A stretch of DNA of 54,788 nt from an uncultured Candidatus Saccharibacteria bacterium (GTDB lineage: Bacteria > Patescibacteriota > Minisyncoccia > Phycocordibacterales > SBAW01). Shown here piece after piece: positions 2,984-45,137 of this stretch. The position numbers were made by a program, and so were the translations under genes. How positions within the stretch are numbered: position 1 is the first letter of the stretch; every line of letters begins with the position of its first letter. The notes beneath the pieces were generated by a model, which had not been told where the DNA came from, did not search any database, and saw only the letters and a program-made list of their open reading frames with translations. The DNA lies in contig CAYHDT010000007.1 in assembly GCA_964355655.1 (NCBI GenBank), positions 1 to 54,788 on the forward strand, read 5' to 3'.

Positions 2984-3019
2984 GTATTAATAGTTGTCCT
3001 ATAGGATATTTATTCATAC
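2984..3019. repeat. 36-bp imperfect palindrome, copy A
   Basis: GTATTAATAGTTGTCCTATAGGATATTTATTCATAC, centred on TCCTATAGGA. Confidence 0.9.
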
Positions 3020-3036
3020 GGAGGTACTATACAGAC

Positions 3037-3618
3037 ATGGGAGAGATAGAGGCAGGGGTTAGGGCGAGAATTCGAAAAACTAAAATTAATAAGGCGGTTA
3101 TTACTACGCTTGCTGTTACTGGCGGGCTCGCAGTGGCTTTGGTTGCTCCGAATGTGCTTGGGGCACTGGGTAAACTCGGTCTCATTAATAATCCGCGGCA
3201 AAAACGCCAAGGAGTGGAGAAATCGCTCAGCCGCCTTGTTCGCCACGGCTATGTAGTTTTGGAAGGTAGAGAGGAGGGAAAGAAGGTGCGTCTTACGGAA
3301 AAAGGGGAACGATACGCCGCAATGCTTGGGGAAGGAAAATTGATACCCAAAAAACCAAGGCGGTGGGATAAAAAATGGAGGATGCTTATCTTTGATATTC
3401 CGGAGAACCGTCGGCGTGTACGCAGTCAAATCCGTGCGTCCCTGGTGCATATGGGGTTTTACAGATTACAGGACAGTGTGTGGGTCTACCCGCACGACGC
3501 TGAAGACTTGGTAACTTTGCTAAAGGCGGATTTTAAAATTGGTAAAGATGTTTTATACGTGGTCGCCGATGCTATCGAATACGATCTTCCTCTCCGAAAA
3601 CATTTTGGTCTAGGATAA
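3037..3618 (+). CDS. PaaX-like protein: winged HTH plus Cas2-like domain
   Basis: LSRLVRHGYV..RLTEKG wHTH; WDKKWRMLIFDIPE...LQDSVW PaaX/Cas2-type motif. Confidence 0.85.
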   Translation: MGEIEAGVRARIRKTKINKAVITTLAVTGGLAVALVAPNVLGALGKLGLINNPRQKRQGVEKSLSRLVRHGYVVLEGREEGKKVRLTEKGERYAAMLGEGKLIPKKPRRWDKKWRMLIFDIPENRRRVRSQIRASLVHMGFYRLQDSVWVYPHDAEDLVTLLKADFKIGKDVLYVVADAIEYDLPLRKHFGLG

Positions 3619-3622
3619 CTGT

Positions 3623-3658
3623 GTATGATTAGTTGTCCTATAGGATATTTATTCATAC
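3623..3658. repeat. 36-bp imperfect palindrome, copy B
   Basis: GTATGATTAGTTGTCCTATAGGATATTTATTCATAC, 4 bp after the PaaX-like stop. Confidence 0.9.
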
Positions 3659-3721
3659 GATTTTGTAAAGGCGGTTTTTTCATGGTAGCGTAGCGGCAGA
3701 AGTGACAGCATAGAGGAACAT

Positions 3722-3880
3722 ATGCCACACCCGATATTGATCCCGATCGGTTTTCGGCTGCTTATCGCGGCTGCGGCGGCTATCGCCGGCGCGCTGGGTT
3801 TTGGACTTGCCAAGGCGGCTAACAAGAGCAACGACGCGCTCGACGAGGCCGAAAAAGAAAAGGAAGAAAAGAAGCAGTAA
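3722..3880 (+). CDS. Small membrane protein, 52 aa, absent from the ORF track
   Basis: AGAGGA SD; MPHPILIPIGFRLLIAAAAAIAGALGFGLAKAANKSNDALDEAEKEKEEKKQ; hairpin and T-run follow. Confidence 0.65.
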   Translation: MPHPILIPIGFRLLIAAAAAIAGALGFGLAKAANKSNDALDEAEKEKEEKKQ

Positions 3881-4046
3881 CCCCGACTCCCGTCGGGATT
3901 TTCTTTTCCACATATGATTTTCATGAAAATTTTTATATAATTGCAGGAAGTTGTTCATTCGTTCGGACATATGTCGGCCTGATTTCTAGAATCGGGTTTT
4001 TTGTTTGGCACGCACAGGGTAAAACCGCGCGCCAGGCAAAGAAAGT

Positions 4047-4086
4047 AAACGAAAAAGTGTCCCGTGCACGGGACACTTTTTCGTTT
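4047..4086. repeat. 40-bp perfect palindrome
   Basis: AAACGAAAAAGTGTCCCGTGCACGGGACACTTTTTCGTTT equals its own reverse complement. Confidence 0.9.
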
Positions 4087-4179
4087 CCCTGCCTGACTGC
4101 AGGCGAGTTGCATAAAAGTGCCCCTATATGAGCCTCAACGCTCATATAACCGTCACTCCAGTCGTACTGCAAGCAATAC

Positions 4180-4208
4180 TTGCACTCCTCCCTACGCTAG
4201 GTTATAGT
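4180..4208 (+). promoter_or_regulatory. Sigma70-type promoter of the rplC unit
   Basis: TTGCAC-17bp-TATAGT; near-duplicate at 11963. Confidence 0.7.
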
Positions 4209-4285
4209 CCTTGGGACGCAGTAAATAGCGTTGGCCATGTCCCCGGGGTTCGCCCCAAGCAGCGGGACCAATAGACAACAATGAA

Positions 4286-4385
4286 CCCCGTTAGAGATCC
4301 TAGAGATCTTCTACGAATGTCTGTTGAATAGGGTTCAGTGCAGATATGGACAAAACTGAAGATAAAACAAAAATCTCTAACGGGG
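4286..4385. mobile_element. Start-codon-inserted inverted-repeat element, copy 1 (rplC), 100 bp
   Basis: ATGAA[CCCCGTTAGAGAT...ATCTCTAACGGGG]TGAAATTC; TGAA duplicated. Confidence 0.8.
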
Positions 4386-5023
4386 TGAAATTCATCCTTG
4401 GAACAAAAGGCAAGATGACGACCGTATATACCGAAGAAGGTATGGCTTTTGCCGCGACCGTCATTGTTGCTACCCCTAATATCGTTACGCAAATAAAGAC
4501 CGCCGAAAAGGAGGGCTACGCCGCCATGCAAGTGGGCGCGGGCGAAACTACGGACAAGCACGTCAACAAAGCGCAGCTCGGCCATGCCAAAGGCAAGGCG
4601 CTTAAGATGTTCCGCGAAATGCGTCCCCGCCCCGCGACGCGCGGTGGGCAGCCGGACGTGAATTTTCCTGAAGTCGGCTCTACCATAGACGTTTCCGTCT
4701 TTGCGGTAGGAGACAAAGTTACCGTTTCCGCCATTTCCAAGGGCCGCGGCTTCCAAGGTGTCGTTAAGCGCCATGGCTTCCATGGCGGCCCGCGCTCGCA
4801 CGGCCAAAAACACTCCGAGCGCTCCCCGGGTTCTATCGGCGGCGGCGGAGGTCGCGCGGGAGGTCGCGTCGCCAAGGGTATGCGCATGGCCGGCCGCATG
4901 GGGCAGGACCGCGTGTCGGTGCGCAACTTGTCGGTCTTGCAGGTCCATCCCGAAACCAATGAGATTGTGATTTCAGGCGCTGTCCCGGGCCGCAAAGGCA
5001 CCGTCGTCGAAATCAAAGGATAA
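4385..5023 (+). CDS. rplC: 50S ribosomal protein L3 (GTG start; alternative ATG 4346 inside the element)
   Basis: KFILGTKGKMT, SKGRGFQGVVKRHGF, MAGRMG. Confidence 0.97.
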   Translation: MKFILGTKGKMTTVYTEEGMAFAATVIVATPNIVTQIKTAEKEGYAAMQVGAGETTDKHVNKAQLGHAKGKALKMFREMRPRPATRGGQPDVNFPEVGSTIDVSVFAVGDKVTVSAISKGRGFQGVVKRHGFHGGPRSHGQKHSERSPGSIGGGGGRAGGRVAKGMRMAGRMGQDRVSVRNLSVLQVHPETNEIVISGAVPGRKGTVVEIKG

Positions 5024-5028
5024 AAGAT

Positions 5029-5685
5029 ATGGAATCTAAACTTTACAACATGAAGGGCGAAGATGTGGGGAAATTTGACGCGCCCGAAAATATTTTCGGC
5101 CTCAAGTGGAATGCCGACCTGGTGCATCAGGTAGTGCTTGCCATGCAGGCAAACGCCCGCCCGAACGTCGCCCATACTAAAGACCGCGGTGAGGTGCGCG
5201 GCGGCGGCAAGAAGCCTTGGCAGCAGAAGGGCACCGGCCGCGCGCGCCATGGCTCCTCGCGCTCGCCTATCTGGAAGGGCGGCGGCGTTACCCACGGCCC
5301 GCGTAAAAATAAAATCTACGCGCAAAAAATCAACCGCACCATGGCGGCCAAGGCTCTTTTGACGGTACTCTCGCGCAAATACAAAGACGGCGAAGTTATT
5401 TTTGTCGACCAAATTGAGATGGCTTCGCCGAAAGCGGCTGCGGGCAAGGCCGTACTGGCGGCGCTCGGTAAAAACTTTTCCGGATTCTCCAAGCGCAAGA
5501 ACGCCGCGCTTATTGCTTTGCCGTCGCGCAGCGTGCCGACGATCAAGTCCTTCAGCAACTTCGGCAACATTTCGGTCGAAGAGGCCCGCAACCTCAACCC
5601 GCTTTCGGTGCTCTCGGCTAAATATCTGGTCATAGCAGACCCCAAATCCGCGCTTGCCCTGCTCGGCAAGAAGGCCTCTAAATAA
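5029..5685 (+). CDS. rplD: 50S ribosomal protein L4
   Basis: GGGKKPWQQKGTGRARHGS. Confidence 0.98.
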   Translation: MESKLYNMKGEDVGKFDAPENIFGLKWNADLVHQVVLAMQANARPNVAHTKDRGEVRGGGKKPWQQKGTGRARHGSSRSPIWKGGGVTHGPRKNKIYAQKINRTMAAKALLTVLSRKYKDGEVIFVDQIEMASPKAAAGKAVLAALGKNFSGFSKRKNAALIALPSRSVPTIKSFSNFGNISVEEARNLNPLSVLSAKYLVIADPKSALALLGKKASK

Positions 5686-5688
5686 TTT

Positions 5689-5976
5689 ATGAAAAAGCAC
5701 TCCGGACACATACTCATCTCCCCGCGCATCACCGAAAAGGGTGCGTACCTAGCAGAACAAGGCGCCTACATCTTTAATGTCGCTCCGGGCGCCAACAAAA
5801 AGGCCATTGCGGGCGCAATTAAAGAAATCTACGGCGTTTCCGCGCGCAAGGTGACGCTCGTTGCTATCCCGCGCAAGCGCGTCATGACCCGGGGCACGAA
5901 CCGCATGGGACTCACAGCCGGCGGCAAGAAGGCCTACGTCTTCTTGAAGAAAGGCGACAAAATCGATATCGCGTAA
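5689..5976 (+). CDS. rplW: 50S ribosomal protein L23
   Basis: PRITEK, KKAYV; synteny. Confidence 0.96.
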   Translation: MKKHSGHILISPRITEKGAYLAEQGAYIFNVAPGANKKAIAGAIKEIYGVSARKVTLVAIPRKRVMTRGTNRMGLTAGGKKAYVFLKKGDKIDIA

Positions 5977-5984
5977 ACAATCGT

Positions 5985-6833
5985 ATGAAATCCTACAAAC
6001 CTTACACAGACTCCCGCCGCCACATGACAACCGTCACCTTTAAGGGGAAGGTCACTACCAATGAACCGCACAAAGCCCTGACCAAGGGCGGCAAGCGCGA
6101 CTTCGGCCGCAATAACGCGGGCCGCATTACCGTGCGCCATAAGGGCGGGGGGCACAAGCGCCTCTTCCGCGATGTTGATTTTGACTACAAAAAACTCGTC
6201 CCTGCCGTGGTAGAGACGGTGGAGTACGACCCGAACCGCTCCGGCTTTATCGGCCTTTTGCTTTACAAAGACGGGGAACGCCGCTACGCTCTTTTGCCGC
6301 AGTCTGTTAAGGTCGGTGCCGTTATCGAGACCTCGCCGGATGCGCCGGCGACTCCCGGCAACCGCATGCCGCTTAAAAATGTTCCTATCGGCGCATTTAT
6401 TTACAACGTAGAGCTCAAGCCGGGCAACGGCGGCAAATTGGCCCGTTCGGCCGGCACTTCTATCGAGCTTATCGCGCGCGATCAGGGCTACGCCGACCTT
6501 AAAATGCCTTCCAGCGAGGTACGCAAAGTGCTCGAGACCTGCTGGGCGACCATAGGCGAAGTTTCAAACGACGAGCATCACCTGCGTACTATCGGCAAGG
6601 CTGGCCGCAGTCGCTGGCTCGGTATCCGCCCGACGGTGCGCGGCACCGCCATGAACCCGGTAGACCACCCGCACGGCGGAGGAGAGGGCCGCCAGGGCAG
6701 GGGATTGCGCCGCGCAAAGTCGGCTTGGGGCAAGCCTACCGGCAAAGGCCAAAAAACCCGCACGCCGAAGAAATACTCCAACTACTTAATAGTCTCCCGC
6801 CGCAAAGTCGGCAAACGCGGACAGAAGCAATAA
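5985..6833 (+). CDS. rplB: 50S ribosomal protein L2
   Basis: EYDPNRS, MNPVDHPHGGGEG. Confidence 0.99.
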   Translation: MKSYKPYTDSRRHMTTVTFKGKVTTNEPHKALTKGGKRDFGRNNAGRITVRHKGGGHKRLFRDVDFDYKKLVPAVVETVEYDPNRSGFIGLLLYKDGERRYALLPQSVKVGAVIETSPDAPATPGNRMPLKNVPIGAFIYNVELKPGNGGKLARSAGTSIELIARDQGYADLKMPSSEVRKVLETCWATIGEVSNDEHHLRTIGKAGRSRWLGIRPTVRGTAMNPVDHPHGGGEGRQGRGLRRAKSAWGKPTGKGQKTRTPKKYSNYLIVSRRKVGKRGQKQ

Positions 6834-6838
6834 AAGAA

Positions 6839-6868
6839 AAAACGCCCCGAGAAAAATCGGGGCGTTTT
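6839..6868. terminator. Bidirectional terminator after rplB
   Basis: AAAACGCCCCGA-gaaaaa-TCGGGGCGTTTT. Confidence 0.8.
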
Positions 6869-6871
6869 GCG

Positions 6872-7192
6872 TTAATGTTTTTTTGCTGTTGGAGTGAGAG
6901 CGAGTTCGCGCTCGGCAAATTCATCAAGATGCTGGTGAAGTCGGTGGAGCATCATCTGCATCCCGGCCTCCTCTCCCTTTACGAGCTCTGTCGGCAGCAA
7001 GCCGCCTTCGATTATAAGCTTGAGGTCGCCCATCAATCCCAACACGATCGTCGTGTAAAAGCGCATTGCCAGCTTTTCGAGCATCTTATCCAGAAGGCCG
7101 CTTTTATTAACCTTCTTGTAATCTTTTTCCACGCTCTTTGGTATATCCATTCGAATGGTTGCGCCGTCCGGGCCCTTGTATTGTATGTGCAT
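6872..7192 (-). CDS. Hypothetical protein inserted between rplB and rpsS
   Basis: CAGGAG SD before ATG 7192. Confidence 0.6.
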   Translation of the reverse strand: MHIQYKGPDGATIRMDIPKSVEKDYKKVNKSGLLDKMLEKLAMRFYTTIVLGLMGDLKLIIEGGLLPTELVKGEEAGMQMMLHRLHQHLDEFAERELALTPTAKKH

Positions 7193-7301
7193 GATCACTC
7201 TCCTGTGTCTGTCTAGTTGAACTCTATCCAGGCACCGCCACTTCCGCAAGTAAAGAAAAAAGCCCCGGATTTCCGGGGCGTTTCAATGGAACCGCTAGTG
7301 C

Positions 7302-7562
7302 TTAATACACAAACGGCTTGCTGGGGTCGGCCATCTTCTTTGCGTGCAGAAGGTACTCAGGCCGCGGTTGTGGGATGGTCGGCTCGGGGACCTTGCGGTA
7401 CTCGCTCACCGTGCAAGTGACCGAGCCGGCTACGTGCTTGAACCCGGTCCTTTTCTCCCAGGCGGGGAGCGCGGTATCGAAGAAGTCCGCATCGTCGGTG
7501 GCGGCCAGGGTCGCGAACGGCATCGATTGTCCGTGCCGGTAGCGGAAGTTATAGCTGCGCAT
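7302..7562 (-). CDS. Hypothetical protein, 86 aa
   Basis: CAGGAG SD; own terminator GCCCCGGA/TCCGGGGC near 7262-7279. Confidence 0.6.
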   Translation of the reverse strand: MRSYNFRYRHGQSMPFATLAATDDADFFDTALPAWEKRTGFKHVAGSVTCTVSEYRKVPEPTIPQPRPEYLLHAKKMADPSKPFVY

Positions 7563-7726
7563 GCGGTGTCTCCTGTGGGGGGTCGTCTGGAGCTACTATG
7601 TCACAAAGGTCTATTTTTGCAAGGTAGGTTGCGCTCCGCTAGGCTTTGCGGTACATTGTGTGCAACTCCCGTGCTGACGACCTAGGCGCTCGCTGCCTAC
7701 GGCCAGCCGGGGTTTTCAATTGCCAT

Positions 7727-8092
7727 ATGGCCCGCTCGCTTAAAAAAGGTCCTTACGTGGACGAAAAGCTCCTCAAAAAGATTGAGGGCAAGAAGCCTCA
7801 GACGGCTGAGCTTATTAAGACGTGGGCACGCCGCTCGCAGATTGCGCCGGAGATGGTGGGCTTTAAATTCGGCGTCCATAACGGCAAGACACACATCGAG
7901 GTCCTCGTAAGCGAAGATATGGTCGGGCACCGCCTGGGCGAATTCTCTCCCACCAAGAAGTTTGTCCGCCACGGCGGCAAGATGCAGAAGGAAATGGAGA
8001 CCAAGGCCAAAGAGGGCGAGATAGCAGCCGCACAGGCCGCCAAGGCCGCGGCAGATGCCGCTGGCGCCAAGAAGGCAGCTCCCGCAAAATAA
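7727..8092 (+). CDS. rpsS: 30S ribosomal protein S19 with Ala/Lys-rich tail
   Basis: [24 protein letters not shown]. Confidence 0.98.
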
Positions 8093-8098
8093 TATTGT

Positions 8099-8464
8099 AT
8101 GTCCGCCTCATCCGCTAAACTTTCAAACTATCGCCAGGCTCCGCGCAAAGTGCGGCTGATTGCCGACCTTGTGCGCGGCAAGTCCGTTACGCACGCGCTT
8201 GCTATGCTGACCATGCTCCCCAAGCGCGGCAGCGAGCCGATGGCCAAGCTTATAAAATCGGCCGCGGCCAATGCTAAAGATGTTTCCGCCGCTGACCTGT
8301 ACATATCGAAGATAGAGGTCAATGGCGGCATCGTCTTTAAGCGCTCCATGCCGAGGGCTCGCGGCCGCGCGGCGCAGATACTCAAGCGCACCAGCCACAT
8401 CACTCTTTCCTTGGACAAAAAACTTCCTAAAAAGGAAAAACCGGCTAAGACCGCCGCAAAATAA
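8099..8464 (+). CDS. rplV: 50S ribosomal protein L22
   Basis: PRKVRLIAD, PRARGRA, KRTSHI. Confidence 0.98.
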   Translation: MSASSAKLSNYRQAPRKVRLIADLVRGKSVTHALAMLTMLPKRGSEPMAKLIKSAAANAKDVSAADLYISKIEVNGGIVFKRSMPRARGRAAQILKRTSHITLSLDKKLPKKEKPAKTAAK

Positions 8465-8467
8465 TTT

Positions 8468-9133
8468 ATGTCTAAAGTAGTACACCCATTTGCACACAGG
8501 CTCGGCACGATACGCGATTGGCGCCATCGCTGGTTTGCCACGGGCCCGGCGTATCAGGCAAATCTGAAGACCGGTGTTCTCTTGCGCGAATTCCTTTTTA
8601 AAGAGCTCCGCGGCATGTACGTCGGCGGTATTGAGCTTGAGCTCGGCAAGCAGCTGCGCATCATCATCAAGACCAGCCGGCCCGGGCTCATTATCGGCCG
8701 GAGCGGCGAGGGCTCGACCAAGCTGCGCAACTCTATCGCCAAATTCTTGGCTGGCAAGAAGATAGTAGTGCCGGAAATAAAGCTCGATATCGAGGAAATC
8801 CGCAGCCCCGAGAGCAACGCGGCTATCGTGTCTTATATGGTCGCCGAAAGCTTGGAGAAGCGCCTGCCGTTCCGCCGCGTGCTCAAGCAAACCATCGAAA
8901 AGGTGATGGCTAACCGCGACGTCAAAGGCGTGCGCATCACGCTCTCAGGCATGCTCGGTGGCGGCTCTATGTCGCGCACTGAGACGCTGAAGAAAGGCCG
9001 CGTGCCGCTCCAGACCATCCGTGCCGACGTTGACTTCCATAAAGAGCGCGCCAACCTGCCGCTCGGCGTCTTGGGTATCAAGGTGTGGGTATACAAGGGC
9101 GATATCTTCTCGAAATCCCAAAAGGACAAATAA
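8468..9133 (+). CDS. rpsC: 30S ribosomal protein S3
   Basis: RPGLIIGR, GRVPLQTIRADVD, GVLGIKVW. Confidence 0.98.
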   Translation: MSKVVHPFAHRLGTIRDWRHRWFATGPAYQANLKTGVLLREFLFKELRGMYVGGIELELGKQLRIIIKTSRPGLIIGRSGEGSTKLRNSIAKFLAGKKIVVPEIKLDIEEIRSPESNAAIVSYMVAESLEKRLPFRRVLKQTIEKVMANRDVKGVRITLSGMLGGGSMSRTETLKKGRVPLQTIRADVDFHKERANLPLGVLGIKVWVYKGDIFSKSQKDK

Positions 9134-9139
9134 AAACAT

Positions 9140-20019: not shown

Positions 20020-20694
20020 TTACAAGGTTTCGCCTTGTAGCGGCTGGTAGGATAGCCAGTCTGTAACGCTATCTTCAAAGTTTTTAGGAGTTTGTAAAAA
20101 TTCTCTAAGGACTGCCTGCTCGATGATTGCGCCCTCCAGGCGATTTTTTCCGATGTAATCTGGGTAGCTAGAGTAGCGATATTTTTGCAAGTGATCGGAT
20201 GCTAAATCTTTGCTGCTTATCCCAGTTTCTTTCCATTTAGGTTCAATAAGTTTTATCGGATTGAGGTGTATATAAGAAATAACATATTTGAAGTACCGGT
20301 CGTCCTTCGCGTGTTGGGATTTGAATACTCCTTGAAATAAGGCACCGCTTCGTTCGTGGCGTTTATTAAAATACATAGTGTATCCCGTTGTCAGTTTTTG
20401 CATAAATCGACTTATATTGCCTCCAGCTTTCTCGCGGACAAGAAAGTGGAAATGATTTGGCATCAAACAATATACGGCCAGATCGATCAGTGCTTCCCCT
20501 CGATTAAGTAGAGTTGCCTCATACAAGGTTTCGCCTTGTAATTTTAAATCTGCAGGGACGGAACTATTACACAAATACATTAACCGCAAGAATCTCTCAT
20601 AATCTTTATCTGAGGTAAAAATGTCGCGCTTGTCCGTGCCCCGGTTGTAAAGGTGATACCATTCGCCAGGTACGAGTGCGGTTTTTCTGAGCAT
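20020..20694 (-). CDS. REP-associated tyrosine (Y1 HUH) transposase, RAYT
   Basis: YHLYNRG, YCLMPNHFH (HUH), YIHLNP, SSY. Confidence 0.92.
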   Translation of the reverse strand: MLRKTALVPGEWYHLYNRGTDKRDIFTSDKDYERFLRLMYLCNSSVPADLKLQGETLYEATLLNRGEALIDLAVYCLMPNHFHFLVREKAGGNISRFMQKLTTGYTMYFNKRHERSGALFQGVFKSQHAKDDRYFKYVISYIHLNPIKLIEPKWKETGISSKDLASDHLQKYRYSSYPDYIGKNRLEGAIIEQAVLREFLQTPKNFEDSVTDWLSYQPLQGETL

Positions 20695-20741
20695 ATTTCT
20701 ATTGTACTGCCCCCACAAGATTTACAAGGTTTCGCCTTGTA
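20021..20741. repeat. Three identical 19-bp REP-like palindromes TACAAGGTTTCGCCTTGTA
   Basis: At 20021-20039, 20522-20540 and 20723-20741. Confidence 0.92.
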
Positions 20742-20823
20742 GACAGCTTCGGTGTTGACGAGTAACACTTATCGACGCTATCCCCGTATCATAGTGCGCG
20801 GAATTACTATTTGATATACTAGG

Positions 20824-32267: not shown

Positions 32268-32436
32268 CTTGTGCAGCTCCTCTGCACCCAACAATTGAAT
32301 AAAAGGGCCTAACCCTCTCAGGAGGTAAGGTTGACAAGCCGGATCACGCATAAAAAACCCGTCATGGGGTTGCGTGATCCGCCGTATCGGGAAACTGGTA
32401 CGAGAGACTTCGGTCTCTACCCGTGGCGGGCTTTTT
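32268..32436 (+). ncRNA. Candidate multi-hairpin ncRNA in the island
   Basis: TATAAT 32259; stems GGATCACGCA/TGCGTGATCC, GAAA and UUCG tetraloop hairpins, final hairpin plus U-run. Confidence 0.5.
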
Positions 32437-35777: not shown

Positions 35778-37326
35778 GGCAGGGCCTGCGTCAGCCAATA
35801 CAAGAGCGATAATTTACGCACGAGTATCTTCTGAAACTCAGGCTCGAGAGGGGCATGGGCTAGAAAGCCAAGAGCATCGCTGTAGGGATTTTGCCAAAGC
35901 TAAGGGGTATGAGGTAGAGGCTGTCTTCCGAGACAGCTTCACCGGTGGCGGCGACTTCTCTAAGAGGCCTGCGATGGCCGAAATGCTTGCGTACATCGAC
36001 AGCAAGCCCCATCGGGACTATGTTGTCATCTTCGACGACATATCTCGTCTGGCTCGTGATGTAGGTCAACATATAAAGTTGCGAGCAATCTTCCGTCTAC
36101 GCGAAATAACCCCTCTGTGTCTGAACTACAGTTTTGAAGACACTCCTGAGGGAGAGTTTGCGGAGGTTGTAATGGCGGGTAATGCAGAGCTATTCCGAAA
36201 ACAAAACAGAAGACAGGTGATCCAAAAGCAGAAGGCTCGTCTAGAGGCCGGCTACTGGCCATTTGGTCCTAGAACGGGCTATATGCACACCCGCGACCAC
36301 ACGCATGGAGTACTGGCGGTACCGACACCTCGAGCAAAGAAAACCCTTAAAGTCGCCCTTGAGATGTACGCCCTAGGTACTCTCCAAAGAAAAGTCGATG
36401 TATGTAGGTATCTTGTTGAAGTAGGTTTTTGGAAGAAACAAAAGCCAGAACGATACATCGATAAAATCAGCCGCATCATGGCGGATCCGTTCTATTGCGG
36501 CGATATTGCATACCCAGCATGGGAAGTGGAAAGGCGTAAAGGACACCATGAGGGAGTTATCTCTCGGGAAACTTTCGATCTTATTCAGCGGCGGCTAGAT
36601 AGGGGAGATGGAGCTCGCATCCGTATTGATACCTCGCCAGACTTTCCTTTGAGAGGATTGCTGGTGTGCCCCGAATGTAAAAAACCTCTGACGGCAGCGT
36701 GGTCAAAAGGTCGTACAAAAAGATACGGTTACTACTTCTGTCAGAACAAAGGCTGTGCTGTAAGCAAAAAGAGCACTACTAGGAGAGAGAAAGTGGAACT
36801 AGAATTTGCAGCACTGTTAAAGCGCAATCGTCTTCGTCCTGAATTTGAAAAAGTGGTTGAGGCCGCTTTCGAACATGCTTGGAAGCAAGAGGCTACTTAC
36901 GCAAAAGAGCGCGAGAAACTCTTTGTTGACGAAGCAAAGCAAGTAAAGGAGCGTATGAACAAGCTCTTGAACGCAACCCTTGCTGCTAAGAGTAGTGAAT
37001 TGAAACAAGTATATGAGGATCAGTTAGAGGGGGCTGCTAAGGAACTAAAGTCGCTTGAGGCTCTTAAACCTCTTACTGACGCAGAGTTGGCGGTGCCTTA
37101 TCAAACCGCGCTAGGCATGTCGATACAACTGCTCAAAAATCCTTATAGAGCTTGGAATAAACTGGATGTGTTCGAGAAGCACAAGCTCTTTTTCTTTGTT
37201 TTCTCTGAGAAATTGGCATATAGCAAAGTCGGCGGTTATCAAACCGCCGATTTAGCTTGCGTTACAAGACTCTTTACAGAGTTTGCGGCACAAAAACACC
37301 TAGTATGTGGAGATGCGGAGAATTGA
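35710..37326 (+). CDS. Large serine recombinase (integrase)
   Basis: IYARVSS, ISRLAR, recombinase domain, CPEC..YYFC..C zinc ribbon, coiled coil. Confidence 0.95.
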   Translation: MKNEILYRKPPKRQRGGRAISNEAGPASANTRAIIYARVSSETQAREGHGLESQEHRCRDFAKAKGYEVEAVFRDSFTGGGDFSKRPAMAEMLAYIDSKPHRDYVVIFDDISRLARDVGQHIKLRAIFRLREITPLCLNYSFEDTPEGEFAEVVMAGNAELFRKQNRRQVIQKQKARLEAGYWPFGPRTGYMHTRDHTHGVLAVPTPRAKKTLKVALEMYALGTLQRKVDVCRYLVEVGFWKKQKPERYIDKISRIMADPFYCGDIAYPAWEVERRKGHHEGVISRETFDLIQRRLDRGDGARIRIDTSPDFPLRGLLVCPECKKPLTAAWSKGRTKRYGYYFCQNKGCAVSKKSTTRREKVELEFAALLKRNRLRPEFEKVVEAAFEHAWKQEATYAKEREKLFVDEAKQVKERMNKLLNATLAAKSSELKQVYEDQLEGAAKELKSLEALKPLTDAELAVPYQTALGMSIQLLKNPYRAWNKLDVFEKHKLFFFVFSEKLAYSKVGGYQTADLACVTRLFTEFAAQKHLVCGDAEN

Positions 37327-37684
37327 ACTCCGGTGCAATGGATAACGGCGCAAGCTTCTACGATGCGTAGTTTGCTTTATGTCTTAGGCAAGATTCGTAT
37401 GAAACAAACCAAATCGAATCAAGCAGCAGCTTTGAGTTTTAAGTACACCGAGTAAGCGACCCAGTGCTCCCGAGTTTAGCTGTATAACACCCGAACCCCG
37501 CTCGCTAAACGAAGCAGGTAGGTGTCCTCTTAGGCCTTAGCGTAGGCGAAAGAGAAATCGTTCGCCGTGAAAAACGGCGACGTAACTGATTTTGCAGTTA
37601 TGAGTTGAAGCATTTTAGAGAAGATGCCTCACTTCTGCATCGCGCTTTGCGCGCGTCAGTCCATTGTCTAAGCCTGTCATCCCC
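37308..37684 (-). ncRNA. ssrA: tmRNA; tag frame 37595-37530 AKSVTSPFFTANDFSFAYAKA*
   Basis: Acceptor GGGGATG/CATCTCC-A with G3.U wobble; T-loop GGAGTTCAATTCTCC; ATAACT-GCA resume context; smpB nearby. Confidence 0.93.
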
Positions 37685-38697: not shown

Positions 38698-39192
38698 ATG
38701 ATACGTTCACGACTTCGGCGGGCAGTGCTCGCCGCCTGTTCTTTTACCATCATGCTCGTCGTTATGGTCATGGCACCTGCCATGGCATCGGCCCAATCGT
38801 CTTTAGACAGCCCGGATGGTGCGCCGTCGCAATCACTTGCCGTCTTTGGCGGCTCTTCAGTGGTGGCGGAAGCCCGACGCTATATCGGTACCAACCCGAC
38901 AGGTTGGAAGAGCCTTTGGTGCGGGAAGTTTATGGACATGGTGCTCAGGCGCACCGGACACAAACCCGGCAGCAACCTGGCCGGCGCTTACGCGCACTAC
39001 GGCACCCGCGTTTCCGGACCCGTCGTCGGCGCTATTGCCGTGATGGGCCGCCGGGGAGGAGGACATGTCGGCATCGTCAGCGGCATAGACGCCAACGGCA
39101 ACCAGATTATTATCTCGGGTAACTACAACCGTACTGTGGCCGAGGTACCCTACCCGCGCCGCCGCATCTACGCCTACGTCCTGCCGAAATGA
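38698..39192 (+). CDS. Secreted CHAP/NlpC-like (TIGR02594-type) cell-wall hydrolase
   Basis: Signal peptide; LWCGKF, GHVGIV, ISGN. Confidence 0.8.
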   Translation: MIRSRLRRAVLAACSFTIMLVVMVMAPAMASAQSSLDSPDGAPSQSLAVFGGSSVVAEARRYIGTNPTGWKSLWCGKFMDMVLRRTGHKPGSNLAGAYAHYGTRVSGPVVGAIAVMGRRGGGHVGIVSGIDANGNQIIISGNYNRTVAEVPYPRRRIYAYVLPK

Positions 39193-39273
39193 CGGCAGAC
39201 ATTCATGCCCCGCGCTTTGCGCGGGGCATTTTCTTTTGTTTAAATACAGGCGGAATGGTAGTATTGTTTACTA

Positions 39274-41238
39274 ATGGCGACTCCTCAAAAAAACCCGCAG
39301 CCAAAGAAGCCGCGTCGGCCGGGGATGCCTAATTTTCCGCAGATTCCCAATATGCCGACCGGCGACTCCTTCTGGGTCAACCTGGCGACCAGTATTTTGG
39401 TGCTTCTTTTGCTCGCCGCCACCTACAGCTACTTTACGGGCAGCGCGGCGGACAAACCGGCTGACGTGGCGCTCTCGCAGGTGGCGGCTGACATCAACGC
39501 CGGGTTGGTAAAAAATATCGAGGTTGACGGCAATAATCTCAAAGTAGTTTACGCCGACAAGACGGAAAAGAAGTCCAAGAAAGAGCCGGAGTCGGCGCTT
39601 TCGGAGAGCCTTAAAAATTACGGCGTTACCACCGAAGCACTTACCAAAACCTCTATCGACATCAAGCGCGAGGGAGGCTTCCAATTTTGGCTGATCGCGC
39701 TAGCTCCTTTCTTCGCGCCGATACTGCTGCTCGCGTTCTTCGTCTGGTATCTTTCCCGACAGGTAAAAGGCGCGGGTATGCAGGCGTTTTCCTTCGGGCA
39801 GTCCAAGCCGCGGATTACCGACCCGAACGACGAAAAATCGCGCGTGACCTTTAAAGACGTGGCAGGCGCCAAAGAGGCCAAGCAAGAGCTGCTCGAAATC
39901 GTCGACTTTTTAAAGAATCCGAAAAAATTCCTCGACATAGGCGCGCGCATCCCTAAAGGCATTCTGCTTATGGGCGCGCCGGGTACCGGCAAGACGTTGC
40001 TGGCCAGAGCGGTGGCCGGCGAGGCGGGGGTGCCCTTTTTCTCTATCTCGGGCTCGGAGTTTGTCGAGATGTTTGTCGGGGTGGGCGCCAGCCGCGTGCG
40101 CGACCTCTTTTTGATGGCTAAAAAAGCGTCCCCGTCGATTATCTTTGTTGACGAGATAGACGCCGTCGGCCGCGTGCGCGGCACGGGAGTAGGGGGCGGC
40201 AACGATGAGCGCGAGCAAACACTCAACCAGATACTTGTCGAGATGGACGGCTTTGAGCCGAACGAAAAAGTGATAGTCATGGCGGCCACCAACCGCCCCG
40301 ATGTGCTGGACCCGGCGCTTTTGCGTCCGGGCCGCTTTGACCGCCGGGTCACTATCGACTTGCCCGACCGCCAAGACCGCAGAGAGATACTTAAAATCCA
40401 CGCGCGCAAAAAGCCGCTCGCTGAAGACGTAAACCTCGAAGTTGTTGCCGAGCGTACGCCCGGATTCTCCGGCGCGGACCTCTTTAGCTTAATGAACGAG
40501 GGCGCCATACTTGCCGCGCGGGAAAACCGCAAGACGGTCGCCCAGTACGACCTTATACGCTCGATAGAAAAAGTGATGCTCGGTCCCGAGCGTAAGTCGC
40601 ACGTGCTTAATAAGAAGGAAAAGGAGATAACTGCCTATCACGAGGCCGGCCACGCGCTGGTCGCGAGTGTGCTGCCGTACGCCGACCCGGTGCACAAAAT
40701 TTCCATCATTTCCCGCGGGCGCGCCGCCGGCTACACGCTCAAGCTCCCGTTTGAGGACAAGAAGATGCAAAGCAAGAAAGAATTTCTCGATGACATCGCT
40801 ATGAGCCTCGGCGGCTATGTGGCGGAGAAAACGGTCTTTGGCGATATTACGACGGGCCCGAGCAACGACCTGCAAGTGCTGACCGCGCTGGCGCGCACCA
40901 TGGTGACCCGCTACGGCATGAGCGACAAGATGGGCACAGTGGCGCTTGAGGGCGACGGCGGCCGGGCGCTCTTTGGCGGCGGCATCGACGGCAAAGCCTA
41001 CTCCGAAAAGATTTCCGCCGAAATAGACGCGGAGGTAAAGAAAATAATCGGCGAGGCGTATACGAAGGCCGAAACAATAATCAAAGAGCATCGCAAGCTC
41101 CTCAATGCCATTGCCAAGCGACTGGTGGAGACAGAGACCATGGAGCGCGAGGAGTTTGAGCAGATACTCATTGCCCACGGCATTACTCCGAAGAAAAAAG
41201 AGGACATCCTCGTCGAGCCGCAAGTCGTAAACTTCTAG
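39274..41238 (+). CDS. ftsH: ATP-dependent zinc metalloprotease FtsH
   Basis: 2 [29 protein letters not shown]. Confidence 0.99.
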
Positions 41239-41269
41239 TCCCGACGCTACGGTCGGGATTGCCGGATAA

Positions 41270-41296
41270 ATCCAGCACCAACAGTTGGTGCTGGAT
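41270..41296. repeat. 27-bp palindrome, copy 2
   Basis: ATCCAGCACCAAC-A-GTTGGTGCTGGAT. Confidence 0.9.
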
Positions 41297-41342
41297 AAAA
41301 AACCTCCCGCGGGTGCGGGAGGGGATAGTTTATACGTCTTGA

Positions 41343-41576
41343 TCAGGGTCCGACGTACGGGTGGTGGTAGGTGCTGTTCCATTTTTGGCGCAGTAATCCA
41401 AGCAGGATATAGCCCAGCGCCACCAGGATCATGATGCAGAAGGCCCCCAGTCCAAGGAAAAAGGGCGGATTCTGGGTCGTGTCGAGATAGAAAAAAATCC
41501 CCGCAAGGCCCAAGAGCGTCACTATGCTGATCGGCAACCAAGCGTCTATTTTGACCTCCGACGTGATTTCGGCCAT
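41343..41576 (-). CDS. Small 2-TM membrane protein
   Basis: GGGAG SD; flanked by the duplicated terminator AAAAAACCTCCCGCGGGTGCGGGAGGGGA (about 41297 and 41635). Confidence 0.6.
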   Translation of the reverse strand: MAEITSEVKIDAWLPISIVTLLGLAGIFFYLDTTQNPPFFLGLGAFCIMILVALGYILLGLLRQKWNSTYHHPYVGP

Positions 41577-41668
41577 GTAGTTTCTCCCTAGTTGAAACTG
41601 CGTCTGCCGAAACCATATCACGCCTTTTATAAATAAAAAACCTCCCGCGGGTGCGGGAGGGGAATCGG

Positions 41669-42895
41669 TTAGGCAATCACTCGTTCGGCAGGCACATACT
41701 TACGTTTCATCCCTGCCATTGCGAGCCGGGCCCGCATTTCGCCGCGAGGGGTCTGGCGGACGAAGTACTCGTCCACAATCCAATCCTTGCGGACGAACTT
41801 TTTGAGCGTCTTGGGATAATCAAGCCCATATGCTTCCCGCGCGTTGATCGACATAAAATCGTTCAAACGGTCAAGATTGCCCGTCTCGGCGAAACGCTCG
41901 ATAACGTACGAGACGTTGGCCGCCGGCGACTGCGTTTGCCCGCCGATGACGAACCCGTGGTTGTTTATCTTGACTCCGCCAGGCTGGGTCGGGTCATCCC
42001 ACCAACACGCGTCGTCGCAGCCGTAGATCCAATACGGTTCATCCGACAACATCGCCGAGTCGACCGCCTGTCGGCTCTCCTCCGTCTTGAAGATGGGTAG
42101 GCAGAACTTGTCGGCGGCGAACATAGTGCCGCCGTCCGGTGCTTCGACGAGATCGTCGCACGACCACAGGCTATAGTGAGGGCAGACTTCGCCCCACACG
42201 TTGTAGCCCTTTGAACGCAGGTAGCGAATCACGTCAATCGTGTAGCTATCGGTGACGTGGCAGACCACGATCTTTGCATCCGGCACCTCAAGAAAGAGCC
42301 GCGAGAGGTCCCGTTCGACTGAGGCCCGCTCGCGGTGGAGAAAATAGATCCTCCGCCCGAACAAGTCGTACTTGCGCTCCATGTGGACAGCCAGGGTCAT
42401 CGGCTCGCGGCGATGGCTGAACTTGGTGTAAGTCATCGCCTTAAGCACCGGGATCATTGTGGAGATGTCGTTGACGTCCGCACCGTGCGCATTGCTGGCG
42501 GCGCGGACGAACATCTTCATGTAGTCCCACGCCGCTTTGCCTTCGGGCTGGTCGTAGCCAGAGACAACGTCGGCCGGATCGGTACCTTCGGTCATGAGGC
42601 CTCCCACGCGGATTTTCGTGCTGCTGTCGGCGGGCAACAACGCTCGCCATTGCGCACCCTTGCGATAGGCGAGCTCGCTGGTTGTGAGCGGGGGTTTGGT
42701 ATTTCCCATGCACATGAGCGTTTCGTAGACTTCGGCGGCGCGGGGGATAAGCATCTCGGCGCGACCGTCACCTTCGGCGTCGGTGTCCCGCGGATGGAAG
42801 TGCGTGTTGACGATGTTGGGGGTATCGACCGTTTCCGGGTAGGAGACGCTCAACTCTACGGCTTTCAATGTGGGAAACAACTCCTGTATCTGCAT
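41669..42895 (-). CDS. pyrC: Dihydroorotase, divergent
   Basis: HFHPRD, MGNTKPP, EVCPHY, FCLPIFK, GCDDA. Confidence 0.8.
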   Translation of the reverse strand: MQIQELFPTLKAVELSVSYPETVDTPNIVNTHFHPRDTDAEGDGRAEMLIPRAAEVYETLMCMGNTKPPLTTSELAYRKGAQWRALLPADSSTKIRVGGLMTEGTDPADVVSGYDQPEGKAAWDYMKMFVRAASNAHGADVNDISTMIPVLKAMTYTKFSHRREPMTLAVHMERKYDLFGRRIYFLHRERASVERDLSRLFLEVPDAKIVVCHVTDSYTIDVIRYLRSKGYNVWGEVCPHYSLWSCDDLVEAPDGGTMFAADKFCLPIFKTEESRQAVDSAMLSDEPYWIYGCDDACWWDDPTQPGGVKINNHGFVIGGQTQSPAANVSYVIERFAETGNLDRLNDFMSINAREAYGLDYPKTLKKFVRKDWIVDEYFVRQTPRGEMRARLAMAGMKRKYVPAERVIA

Positions 42896-42992
42896 GTCGT
42901 GCCTCGCTCTGGTTAGAACTGGTAGTCTGCTCGGCACTGTAACAAAGGGTCAGAAAAAAGAAAAGGCCGCTCCCGAGGAAGCGGCTTACTTA

Positions 42993-43928
42993 TCAGACAG
43001 CATCGGGAAGTTCGAGAAGCCCCAAGTTAAGATCGCGGATGAAGTTTGGATCCTCGTTGGCTTCGCGGAAGGCGCTATTGATTTGTACCATCGTGGCGCC
43101 CGCCTTGAACATCTGAGAAGTTTTTTCAATGTTGTTGACTCCGCCGGCCCCAAGTACAACTTTACCGGCAGGCATACCCTCCGCCATGAACTGGGTATGG
43201 TCCAGTGCGATGGGGAAGATAGCCGGGCCGGCTAGGCCGCCGCGATCAATCCCGTTCGCGGTTTTGATTACCGTGGCGCCAGTCCCGATATAACCGAGTC
43301 CGTTCGGGATAGTGTTGCCAGTAATCGCGCCGGTAAAGACACGCGATGCGCGAACCCGGTCACGGTTATGCGAGAGTGCCGGCCGGCGCATGGCACACGA
43401 GACTTTCCACAAGACCACGGCGTCGATGTCGCCAATTTCGCGGTCTGCCCGGTCGAAGACTTCATCCACTGCGAATGGGTCGTCGCAGAGAATCGGTTGG
43501 TCCTTCTTGTTTGGACAGGCACCGTTGACCGTGATGACCTTAATGCCGGCCTGCACAGCCCGTTTCAGGAGGGAAAGCGTGTCTTCGACGCCATTGCCGG
43601 ATACATTAAGCCAGAACGGCTTGCCGTAGTCGGCATGGGTTTTAATCAGCTCGCTCGCATGTTCCTCGACATAGTCCATACCACGGTTCAACAAACCGAT
43701 CGAGTTGTAGGTGCAGACGAGCGCCCCATTGTCATAGACAGCAAAATAATCGCGTCCTCCGTTGCCGGCAAGTGCCGGAGTCGTGGCTGAGCCGAACTCG
43801 GCCAGGACATCTGCCTTCGCAAACTTTATAGACTGCTCGACAGTCTTGACCACCCCGCCGGCAACCATAACAGGATAAGGGAAGGTGATTCCTTTGACCG
43901 TACGCTGCAATGATGCAACTTCTCTCAC
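42993..43928 (-). CDS. pyrD: Dihydroorotate dehydrogenase, class 1, divergent
   Basis: NSIGLLN, NGACPN, GNT, GGLAG, GAGGV. Confidence 0.85.
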   Translation of the reverse strand: MREVASLQRTVKGITFPYPVMVAGGVVKTVEQSIKFAKADVLAEFGSATTPALAGNGGRDYFAVYDNGALVCTYNSIGLLNRGMDYVEEHASELIKTHADYGKPFWLNVSGNGVEDTLSLLKRAVQAGIKVITVNGACPNKKDQPILCDDPFAVDEVFDRADREIGDIDAVVLWKVSCAMRRPALSHNRDRVRASRVFTGAITGNTIPNGLGYIGTGATVIKTANGIDRGGLAGPAIFPIALDHTQFMAEGMPAGKVVLGAGGVNNIEKTSQMFKAGATMVQINSAFREANEDPNFIRDLNLGLLELPDAV

Positions 43929-44019
43929 GAGTCGTACTCCTCTGATTGAAAAGAATTTCTGTGCCGAACAATAGCACGGAGCTACAAAAAGAAAAACCCC
44001 GCGGTAGGCGGGGTTGGAA

Positions 44020-44928
44020 TCAGCGGAGAATCTCCTGTAGCAGAGCCATGCGGATAAGCCGGCCGTAGTACATCTGGTCGAGATATTTCTGCTGGGGCAG
44101 TGCGTCGATCTCGCGAGAGAGCTCCTGGTTGCGGGGGAGGGGGTGCAGGATGATGGCGCCCTTTTTCATCCGCTCGGCCACCCTGCGGTCGATGACATAG
44201 GGTGCCAGTCCGGCATGCGCATTCGGATCGGTTGTGTACTCTTTTTGCGCGCGCGTCTGGTACACCACATCAACCTGGCCGATAATCCGGTCGAGGTCGG
44301 CCGTCTCTTCCACCTGCACGCCGCTTTCGTGGAGATAGTGCAACAGGTCGCCTTTGATGCGCAGATGCTCGGGCGACACCAAGTAGAGCTTAACTCCCCG
44401 GTACTTGGTAAGCAGATACGCCAGCGAGTTGGTGGTGCGGCCGAACTTTAAGTCGCCGACGAGCGCGATACTTAAATCATCGATATCTTTGTGCGCCCGA
44501 TGGATGGTGTATACGTCGAGCAGGGCCTGCGTAGGATGCTGTTCCTTGCCGGACCCGCCGTTGATGATAGGTACCGGTGAGAGCAGTGCCACCCGAAATA
44601 TGGCGTCTTCGTCCGGATGCCGCAGCACAATGACATCCGCGCCAATTTTTGCAAGCGAGAGTACCGTGTCCTCGATAGTTTCGCCTTTTTCCTGCGATGA
44701 GTCGGAGCTGGAAACGGCGTGCGCGGTGCCGCCGAGCCGCTCCCATCCGATGCAGAAAGAAAGCCGCGTGCGGGTGCTGGGCTGGCAGGCATAAAACACG
44801 AGCGTCTTGCCCTTTGCACAGTCGCTGCCTTTTTGCTCGAGCATGTTCGCCGAGTCAAAAAGGTCGTCGATGCGCCGGCGGTCAAAGTCCTGCGCCCGCA
44901 GGACATGCGGGATTTTTTTTGCCGGCAT
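44020..44928 (-). CDS. pyrB: Aspartate carbamoyltransferase catalytic subunit
   Basis: PSTRTRLSF, HPTQALLD, GDLKFGRT, HPLPR. Confidence 0.95.
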   Translation of the reverse strand: MPAKKIPHVLRAQDFDRRRIDDLFDSANMLEQKGSDCAKGKTLVFYACQPSTRTRLSFCIGWERLGGTAHAVSSSDSSQEKGETIEDTVLSLAKIGADVIVLRHPDEDAIFRVALLSPVPIINGGSGKEQHPTQALLDVYTIHRAHKDIDDLSIALVGDLKFGRTTNSLAYLLTKYRGVKLYLVSPEHLRIKGDLLHYLHESGVQVEETADLDRIIGQVDVVYQTRAQKEYTTDPNAHAGLAPYVIDRRVAERMKKGAIILHPLPRNQELSREIDALPQQKYLDQMYYGRLIRMALLQEILR

Positions 44929-45004
44929 GAGTCGCCTCCGTGTGAGAAAGAAGTCTTGCGGAACAGTAGCACAACGGGGAAGTTTCGGGTAGAGTTTAGC
45001 TCAT

Positions 45005-45080
45005 GGGCGTGTAGCTCAGTTGGTAGAGCAGTCGACTTATACTCGACCGGTCCCTGGTTCGAGCCCAGGCGCGCCCACCA
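45005..45080 (+). tRNA. tRNA-Ile(UAU)
   Basis: Full cloverleaf; anticodon arm GTCGA-CTTATAC-TCGAC (TAT 45038-45040); GGTTCGA; ends ACCA. Confidence 0.93.
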
Positions 45081-45101
45081 CAATTGTAGAAGATAAGGTG
45101 C

Positions 45102-45137
45102 GTATGAATTACTGTCCTATAGGATTTTTATTCATAC
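45102..45137. repeat. 36-bp imperfect palindrome, solo copy C
   Basis: GTATGAATTACTGTCCTATAGGATTTTTATTCATAC between tRNA-Ile and the recG stop. Confidence 0.9.

Follow-up and report, generated by a model that had tools for sequence, protein, structure and literature searches.

Why should a gene for a small, probably DNA-binding protein stand between two copies of one long palindrome, with a further copy of it 41 kb away? This question is raised by a locus in a stretch of 54,788 nucleotides, hereafter the window, from contig CAYHDT010000007.1 of an uncultured Candidatus Saccharibacteria bacterium. There, a cassette between rpsJ (1540-1911) and rplC (4346-5023) consists of a gene for a protein with a predicted winged helix and a Cas2-like domain, which we call mini-PaaX, and of a 36-bp palindrome on either side of it. 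A first-pass annotation, made from the sequence alone, had likened this arrangement to the REP/RAYT systems, in which a nuclease gene is flanked by its own palindromes and solo copies are found elsewhere. From the analysis described here, we consider it rather probable that mini-PaaX is an autorepressing, site-specific DNA binder with paired operators, and not a transposase system of the REP/RAYT kind.

The gene and its palindromes

The features on which the argument turns are the following.

2984-3019, no strand: type-A palindrome, upstream copy, GTATTAATAGTTGTCCTATAGGATATTTATTCATAC, between a terminator (2930-2945) and the ATG at 3037
3025-3030, plus strand: TACTAT, a -10-like hexamer ending 6 nt before the A of the ATG; predicted leaderless start at 3037
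3037-3618, plus strand: mini-PaaX gene, 193 aa, predicted winged helix-turn-helix and Cas2-like PaaX_M domain, without PaaX_C
3193-3243, plus strand: codons of the predicted recognition helix (residues 53-69), with covariation between its residues 58, 59, 62 and 64 and palindrome positions 13-16, counted from the centre
3358-3576, plus strand: codons of the Cas2-like (PaaX_M) domain (residues 108-180), with D120, R129, Q145 and S147 among its invariant residues
3623-3658, no strand: type-A palindrome, downstream copy, GTATGATTAGTTGTCCTATAGGATATTTATTCATAC, 4 nt past the mini-PaaX stop codon
45102-45137, no strand: type-A palindrome, solo copy, GTATGAATTACTGTCCTATAGGATTTTTATTCATAC, between the 3' end of tRNA-Ile(TAT) and the recG stop

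The type-A design is a 36-bp quasi-palindrome with outer arms GTATKA../..TCATAC and the core TCCTATAGGA. In each copy the palindrome is imperfect, about 14 of its 18 pairs being complementary. The flanking copies are in direct orientation and identical at 34 of 36 positions, the upstream one ending 17 nt ahead of the mini-PaaX ATG. The coordinates thus confirm the earlier description of one palindrome lying 17 bp before and 4 bp after the gene in the same orientation. The third copy, which had been placed 41 kb away between the convergent 3' ends of tRNA-Ile and recG, is indeed there: it lies 21 nt past tRNA-Ile(TAT) (45005-45080, plus strand) and 3 nt from the stop of a minus-strand open reading frame (ORF; 45141-47360) that is RecG by its Pfam domains (RecG_wedge, DEAD, Helicase_C and RecG_dom3_C). 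A scan of the whole source assembly (G000; 863 kb, 24 contigs, 54% G+C, 97% complete) added a fourth copy on contig C13 (26273-26308), after a terminator and 52 nt upstream of tRNA-Ser(GGA). The type-A solo copies are identical to the flanking ones at 30-31 of 36 positions. The 10-bp core TCCTATAGGA occurs three times against 0.05 expected, a count reached in none of 100 shuffles, and the expectation for the degenerate 36-mer pattern is 0.00.

The protein

The gene product is a PaaX without the C-terminal ligand domain, hence the name mini-PaaX, as judged from Pfam, NCBIfam, an AlphaFold model and Foldseek. Pfam gave a strong match to PaaX_M (PF20803; E 2.7e-22, 79.1 bits for a cut-off of 24) and a sub-threshold one to CRISPR_Cas2 (4e-4). 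The N-terminal half had only weak winged-helix matches (HTH_27 and DUF6293_C), PF07848 being unlisted up to E 1. In the 193-aa protein, no Pfam match was obtained for the PaaX_C ligand domain (PF08223), nor for the HUH/Y1 transposase domain (PF01797, Y1_Tnp). The NCBIfam cas2 profile (TIGR01573) scored 27.3 bits, above its cut-off of 24.5, over profile positions 3-46 of 96 only; the PaaX equivalog TIGR02277 reached 42.9 bits, far under its cut-off of 264.55; and a Cas2 model of PADLOC also gave a hit.

The AlphaFold model of the monomer, built from a 60-sequence alignment, has a mean predicted local distance difference test score of 76 (83-96 in the Cas2-like half, 53-78 in the N-terminal half). 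In it, residues 53-69 form a helix and residues 73-86 the hairpin of a wing, after which comes a beta-alpha-beta-beta-alpha-beta domain. PaaX is a phenylacetyl-CoA-responsive repressor, and the structures that we compared are those from E. coli W (8A39), Jannaschia (3L09) and Mycobacterium tuberculosis (Rv0674, 3KFW). The best structural match in Foldseek was E. coli PaaX 8A39, across the winged helix and the middle domain (E 4e-6, 182 columns, N-terminal part included), followed by Rv0674 and then by the Cas2 chains 5ZYF, 6JHZ and 3EXC. Mini-PaaX differs from PaaX in that it ends at residue 193, without PaaX_C, and falls below the equivalog cut-off; moreover, no paa genes are found among its neighbours between rpsJ and rplC.

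With Cas2 and VapD the protein shares the ferredoxin-like fold, a beta-1 motif, the Foldseek matches to Cas2 chains and the NCBIfam score. Residues W110, D111, W114, R115, F119, D120, R129, L144, Q145, S147 and P152 are invariant in 60 of 60 relatives. The F-D-I motif of beta-1 aligns with Y-D-V of the Cas2 protein SSO8090 (3EXC) in a weak profile alignment (E 0.15). We take the beta-1 aspartate, at the D120 position, to be the catalytic aspartate in Cas2; mini-PaaX keeps this Cas2-type residue, whereas Rv0674 has no acidic residue there. Unlike in Cas2, however, this domain is fused to a predicted winged helix, and mini-PaaX matches only the first half of the Cas2 profile and has no CRISPR context. 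Cas1 (PF01867, Cas_Cas1) had no match in the 97% complete source genome, where control profiles did match.

Paired palindromes throughout the family

The source genome holds two paralogues of mini-PaaX, 54% and 40% identical to it. Each of the three genes is bracketed, next to its start and its stop, by its own 32-36-bp palindrome, and the three palindromes differ from one another: that of the paralogue on contig C3 (type B) reads TACACC..CCGGTCGGG..GGTGTA and that on contig C6 (type C) ACGTAA.TTAT.CTATAG.ATAA.TTACGT. The type-C cassette (1016-2402 of locus L008) stands between two tandem paralogous small-gene units whose promoter-like segments (43 nt, 81%) and terminator segments (57 nt, 74%) are nearly identical; from these repeats, it looks as if the cassette had been placed between duplicated units.

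Is such bracketing a general property of the family? A scan of one-genome-per-species contigs returned at least 366 relatives. The best 80, which were kept, all belong to the Candidate Phyla Radiation (CPR; Adler-, Kaiser-, Taylor-, Zambryski- and Nomurabacteria, Paceibacterota). The 90-nt flanks ahead of the start and past the stop were compared at these 80 loci, and in 67 they share a palindrome of about 30-40 nt, with a score higher than any that 156 control comparisons reached (at most 12.0); the median was 20.5 for the loci and 7.0 for the controls. The first-pass annotation had proposed looking for paired, gene-specific palindromes beside PaaX-like homologues of the CPR. They are present at these 67 loci and at both paralogues of the source genome, so that the homologues cannot be said to lack them.

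Under a stricter pipeline, which demanded palindromic centres of equal parity on the two sides, 63 of 83 genes remained, and the pairs were matched in 60 of them. The 20 loci that it dropped, one for a short flank and 19 for want of a common-parity centre, are outside the anatomy and covariation counts given below; 12 of these 19 had matched flanks in the 90-nt comparison. At locus L033, the upstream and downstream palindromes are both perfect and their arms differ (ACGCTATAATTAAGC and ACACATATCCTAAGC), and the downstream one may, on its sequence, belong to another paralogue. No relative of mini-PaaX was found in viral contigs. A literature search, whose coverage stopped short of subscription journals, returned no paper on the module and none pairing PaaX with Cas2 or with the Candidate Phyla Radiation.

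Covariation of the protein with its palindrome

If each protein recognises its own palindrome, the two would be expected to vary together. For the 60 loci, the columns of the protein alignment were compared by mutual information with the consensus half-sites, with 100 label shuffles that ignore relatedness as the null. The eight best pairs all join residue 58, 59, 62 or 64 to palindrome positions 13-16, with values of 1.32-1.02. All eight exceed the 95th percentile of the shuffles (0.93; median 0.82) and four exceed their maximum (1.06). When residue 59 is Y or F, the arm base is C (11 of 11 loci); N at this residue is paired with A (6 of 6), and I, V or S with T (29 of 31). At residue 64, R, A or K is accompanied by G in 36 of 39. 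A weaker signal, at the edge of significance, links residue 130, in the first helix of the Cas2-like domain, to positions 3-4 (0.93 and 0.86).

Residues 58-64 lie, in the model, within the helix 53-69 and just ahead of the wing hairpin, where winged-helix proteins have their recognition helix. Since the shuffles ignore relatedness, this localisation of the covariation to one helix is the real argument. The residues of the recognition helix seem to track the arm bases as in a repressor-operator pair, which points to reading of the duplex.

Anatomy of the sites and the predicted promoter

The symmetry of the palindromes peaks at core positions 1-3 from the centre and in the outer arms at positions 14-17, with a minimum at positions 5-8 that is yet well above chance. 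The cores are mostly of the CTATAG type or of the CGGTCG/CGACCG type. From the centre to the ATG, the distance is 17.5 nt in 32 of 60 loci, 19.5 nt in six and 35.5-38.5 nt in 12, the window locus included. In the 17.5-nt class, the final base of the upstream 36-mer is the A of the ATG, and a TAnnnT motif stands at -12 to -7 from this A, in the right arm of the upstream copy, in 21 of 32 loci. The same count is 5 of 32 for the left arm, and for the equivalent positions of the downstream copy 6 of 32 in the forward direction and 6 of 32 in the reverse complement. In the 35-39-nt class, to which the window belongs, TAnnnT ends 6 nt ahead of the ATG in 7 of 12 loci.

Because this -10-like element stands at a fixed distance from the ATG, we infer for the mini-PaaX gene a leaderless promoter starting at 3037. 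The upstream type-A copy would then serve as an operator on this promoter, over the stretch from about -54 to -19. In most relatives the -10 element would fall inside the palindrome, and in the window the palindrome would cover the -35 side instead.

The downstream copy lies at a variable distance from the stop (14.5 to 85.5 nt to its centre) and is the better palindrome of the pair in 29 loci, against 14 for the upstream copy. The relative orientation of the two is direct in 33 of the 60 loci and inverted in 15, with 12 ties. Two simple roles for it were considered and rejected, that of an intrinsic terminator, a T-run following it in only 7 of 60 loci, and that of an operator of the next gene, which in 33 of 60 loci is convergent with the mini-PaaX gene according to a crude ORF call.

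How does this compare with PaaX itself? According to PMC9493321, E. coli PaaX binds TGATTC(N27)GAATCA and represses its own promoter Px; another report, PMC2770484, is concerned with the TetR-type PaaR. By the former account, both systems have a long operator with short inverted repeats far apart, the mini-PaaX arms lying 13-16 bp from the centre of the 36-mer, and the repression of its own promoter is predicted for mini-PaaX likewise. On the other hand, mini-PaaX is bracketed by its own sites on both sides and comes as several paralogues, each with its own predicted specificity.

We thus propose that a symmetric dimer of mini-PaaX would bind its own palindrome of about 36 bp. The two recognition helices would read the outer arms, 13-16 bp on either side of the centre, and the pair of Cas2-like domains would sit over the core. 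Because the upstream site overlaps the gene's own promoter, predicted to be leaderless, the protein would repress itself. The upstream site and the second, usually more perfect one past the stop would form a paired operator, which may either make a loop or serve as a roadblock sealing off the cassette on both sides. The solo sites would be extra binding sites born from copying of the palindrome, lineage-specific and with no conserved target.

Inheritance of the cassette

The slot between rpsJ and rplC is common to five of the 80 homologues (L009-L012 and L016), which are 57-86% identical. As these orthologues keep matched flanks at each locus despite palindromes that have diverged between loci, we read the rpsJ-rplC cassette as a case of old vertical inheritance in which both sites would have changed in concert.

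Of 29 loci from the genus, four have the cassette in this slot (G000, G046, G020 and G024) and three were left unassigned. In the other 22, rplC comes next without mini-PaaX, after gaps of 75-1250 nt. Alleles lacking the cassette and retaining one repeat had been suggested as something to look for; empty alleles do exist, but none of these 22 gaps holds a solo of the mini-PaaX type, and only GC-rich, terminator-type hairpins were found in them. In the gap of L181 there is one 24-nt palindrome, of a different architecture.

The rpsJ-rplC gap (1911-4346 in the window; L159-L187) is a hotspot of variable content, from 75 to at least 1250 nt, occupied by small ORFs, membrane proteins or the cassette. 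Upstream of rplC, at 4047-4086 of the window, stands a perfect 40-nt hairpin made of an A-tract, a GC stem and a T-tract. Hairpins much like it (ACGAAAAA-GC stem-TTTTTCGT) occur in the gap of many genus genomes, and it may be, from its sequence, a conserved bidirectional terminator or a leader element of the L3 operon.

Observations that do not fit an autorepressor

Several results weigh against the idea of an autorepressor with paired operators. The family is present in 14 of 31 genus genomes, with 0-5 copies each, and was not found in 17, including genomes that are 98-99% complete. It is therefore dispensable in the genus, and a pure self-repressor without output is hard to justify in a 0.86-Mb genome. 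A scan with the sigma-70 consensus gave no gene-strand promoter in or beside the upstream type-A palindrome. In a tree-based check of the covariation, with the helix columns removed from the tree, only 1-4 independent contrasts per trait fell on supported branches and none was significant, nearly all of them being in the expected direction. Solo copies turn up inside rsmI and between convergent 3' ends, places at which an operator would hardly be expected, and the positions of solos are not conserved among congeners with the orthologous cassette (G024 has none and G020 has one elsewhere).

The most puzzling point concerns the symmetry itself. The two copies of one gene differ and yet stay palindromic: 84 double differences were counted against 36 expected, and 43 of the 84 are compensated in both copies. 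A dimer that reads the arms and the core does not require such compensation, which autorepression hence leaves unexplained. Its source could be a hairpin or cruciform function, or a correction of one arm from the other by template switching; the correction of quasi-palindromes by template switching is an established mutational process.

Solo copies

The source genome contains four solo copies. Two are of type A, one between tRNA-Ile and recG and the other ahead of tRNA-Ser. The type-B pair consists of C4:44395-44430, which precedes a hypothetical gene by 80 nt, and C3:68366-68401, within an rsmI-like gene. No solo of type C was found. It is thus not the case that all other copies overlap promoters, as the first-pass annotation expected of an ordinary regulon, since some lie between convergent ends or inside rsmI. 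A promoter scan at the two type-A solo sites gave nothing useful.

Solo counts in other genomes with a cassette were as follows.

G048: one, identical at 36 of 36 positions
G049: five, of which four are identical at 32 of 32 positions to the flanking copies
G050: two
G051: one, identical at 36 of 36 positions
G024: none
G020: one, in an unrelated place, with no tRNA nearby

Both type-A solos of the source genome adjoin tRNAs. A link with tRNAs was nevertheless rejected, none of nine solo loci elsewhere holding one. The type-A pattern is absent from 24 other genus genomes, G020 giving only a three-mismatch match to its own diverged flanking palindrome. The genome with the 86%-identical orthologue has only the two flanking copies, in an assembly of only 500 kb. 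Where both genes were seen in the genus, tRNA-Ile(TAT) mostly lies 3-25 nt from the recG stop, in either orientation, and no such palindrome was found at this junction in the genus genomes examined. The two genes are co-directional in about nine of these genomes and convergent in about nine (L097-L125).

The type-B solo within rsmI is a length-preserving patch of 36 nt, with many differences from the same codons of the 86%-identical orthologue; an insertion was rejected, the gene having the same length as in its nearest relatives. Three rsmI orthologues (L156, L157 and L158, from G005, G017 and G047) carry in frame about 30-45 extra residues near residue 94 that the other orthologues are without.

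As four solos of G049 are identical at 32 of 32 positions, the solos are evidently copied whole; they are young or lineage-specific and define no conserved regulon. The G049 solos (L191-L194) share 32 identical bp, each extended by a different short inverted flank (e.g. ccccctcc...ggaggggg, or ccctc...gaggg), and look as if they sat at the tip of pre-existing GC-rich hairpins. An exact empty site was sought for a G049 solo: the sole syntenic relative, G055, is 71-74% identical with abutting genes and offers no exact junction. In G050 (contig C16, about 1410-1536 of L197), a solo is preceded at a distance of about 50 nt by a second palindrome of the same architecture and another sequence (ACACACCAATAACACGCTATAGCGCGTGATTGGTGTGT); one intergenic region therefore holds sites of two specificities.

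Could the palindromes be selfish?

One would then wonder whether the protein and the palindrome form a selfish pair, functionally analogous to REP/RAYT, in which autorepression would only limit the dose. The dimer would recognise the palindrome, the Cas2-type domain would nick or cleave the palindrome or near-cognate sites, and repair from an intact copy would write new 36-bp palindromes. This explanation, which is compatible with autorepression, appears to us rather unlikely, and it is the one that survives best beside it. The solos look like lineage-specific additions, with no type-A site in 24 genomes of the same genus and a tRNA-Ile/recG junction that is palindrome-free and tight in most genus genomes where both genes were seen. 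The identity of copies extends to spacer bases that the protein would not read (the four G049 solos and one each in G048 and G051). Three of four examined solos in G049, and one of four in G000, are between convergent gene ends, the usual refuge of REP-like repeats. The rsmI patch differs sharply from its nearest relative and preserves length, D120 is invariant in the family and unconserved in Rv0674, the cas2 score is above the NCBIfam cut-off, and the family is patchy. Nevertheless, no HUH, Cas1 or integrase partner accompanies the gene and its nuclease or recombinase activity is putative. The palindromes are very few in each genome, orthologues only 57-86% identical still have the cassette in the same slot, no solo of this kind was seen in the 22 empty gaps, the flanks in either orientation speak against a directional recombination site and viral contigs gave no relative.

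A comparison is offered by the source genome, which has six Y1_Tnp genes located apart from mini-PaaX, at least four of them bracketed by their own short hairpins (repeats of 21-25 nt). One of them is in the window:

20020-20742, minus strand: Y1_Tnp gene (HUH 'NHFHF', about 232 aa, RAYT/IS200-like), match at 20266-20487, hairpins on both sides

Its hairpins are identical 21-nt sequences, TTACAAGGTTTCGCCTTGTAG, at 20020-20040 and 20722-20742, with a third copy at 20521-20541. The genome has 15 sites of this hairpin, including five inverted doublets about 20 nt apart, in the manner of REPINs. True RAYT/REP systems are thus present beside the mini-PaaX sites and differ from them in appearance. 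The likeness concerns the layout, namely a gene flanked by palindromes that it is thought to recognise, solo copies elsewhere that are often intergenic at 3' ends, and lineage-specific repeats. However, RAYTs are HUH/Y1 transposases and mini-PaaX has no Y1_Tnp match; REPs are shorter, numerous and often in inverted doublets, whereas the mini-PaaX palindromes are 36 bp long, with 0-2 solos per type in the source genome and no doublets. The RAYT/REP analogy of the first-pass annotation therefore stands for the layout and falls for membership of the family, given the missing HUH/Y1 domain, the tiny copy numbers, the promoter overlap and the fixed slot. Its further idea, that these proteins maintain or spread a palindrome family, holds insofar as the solos are copied and lineage-specific, and gains no support as regards a RAYT-like mechanism. 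Elsewhere in the window, Rfam matched a LOOT RNA (32306-32418, 76 bits) and a transfer-messenger RNA (37305-37684, 100 bits).

Other explanations

We now return to autorepression with paired operators, to which a more classical rival may be opposed. Mini-PaaX could be an ordinary local repressor whose small regulon is made up of neighbours such as the ORF at 3722-3880, tRNA-Ser and the hypothetical gene on C4, with the solos and the downstream copy as their operators. Indeed, the downstream copy lies 63 nt before this ORF, which encodes a small membrane protein, and the solos on C13 and C4 precede tRNA-Ser by 52 nt and a gene start by 80 nt, respectively. In G051 the third identical copy precedes the gene upstream of the cassette, and the two solos of G050 are in similar-looking upstream regions. 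Yet the copy past the stop often faces a 3' end, with an opposite-strand neighbour in 33 of 60 loci by the crude ORF call; several solos are between convergent ends or within a gene; tRNA adjacency is not general, with none at nine solo loci in other genomes; and congeners with the orthologous cassette share no target. We regard a small regulon of this kind as unlikely.

It is very doubtful that the palindromes work chiefly as hairpins, be it in RNA, as a 3' stabiliser or terminator, or in DNA, as a cruciform, with the protein in a secondary role. The excess of compensated double changes, the better symmetry of the downstream, transcribed copy and the loop-like central 4 nt (TATA, GGTC, GACC or GATC), which flip freely, would agree with it. 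But the downstream copy rarely precedes a T-run (7 of 60), the stems are AT-rich where the real terminators nearby are GC-rich hairpins, the upstream copy of the leaderless class would be outside the transcript from its own promoter, the arm bases track residues of the recognition helix, and template-switching correction, as mentioned above, could produce the same symmetry without function. Equally slight is the chance of a single-chain toxin-antitoxin-like or defence module, in which a Cas2/VapD-type nuclease domain fused to a DNA-binding autorepressor would be silenced by the two operators: the PADLOC and NCBIfam matches to Cas2, the invariant D120, the tight autoregulatory geometry and the accessory character of a gene with 0-5 copies per genome would suit it, but no partner gene or defence-island context was seen and the match is confined to the N-terminal half of the Cas2 profile (3-46 of 96).

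Implications

At least 366 relatives share a compact, self-contained architecture that we did not find described in the literature searched. Two questions follow. The first is one of function, streamlined CPR genomes keeping 0-5 copies of a regulator without a conserved target. The second is one of mechanism: can a Cas2-fold domain outside CRISPR act on DNA? This is directly testable. A speculative answer, to which we give a low probability, is that mini-PaaX and its palindrome propagate themselves, the Cas2-type domain nicking or cutting palindrome centres or near-cognate sites that templated repair would then convert, as in a homing-like drive. If true, this would be a second, non-HUH route to REP-like repeats, in ultra-small bacteria that also carry true RAYTs, and 36-bp palindromes would be written into the ends of genes and, with the frame kept, into coding sequences like that of rsmI. 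The RAYT/REP-like systems of the source genome provide a built-in comparator for such a selfish element. Finally, the family offers a readable protein-DNA code across dozens of specificities, for example between residue 59 and arm base 14, which is useful for the study of long-palindrome recognition and for its engineering.

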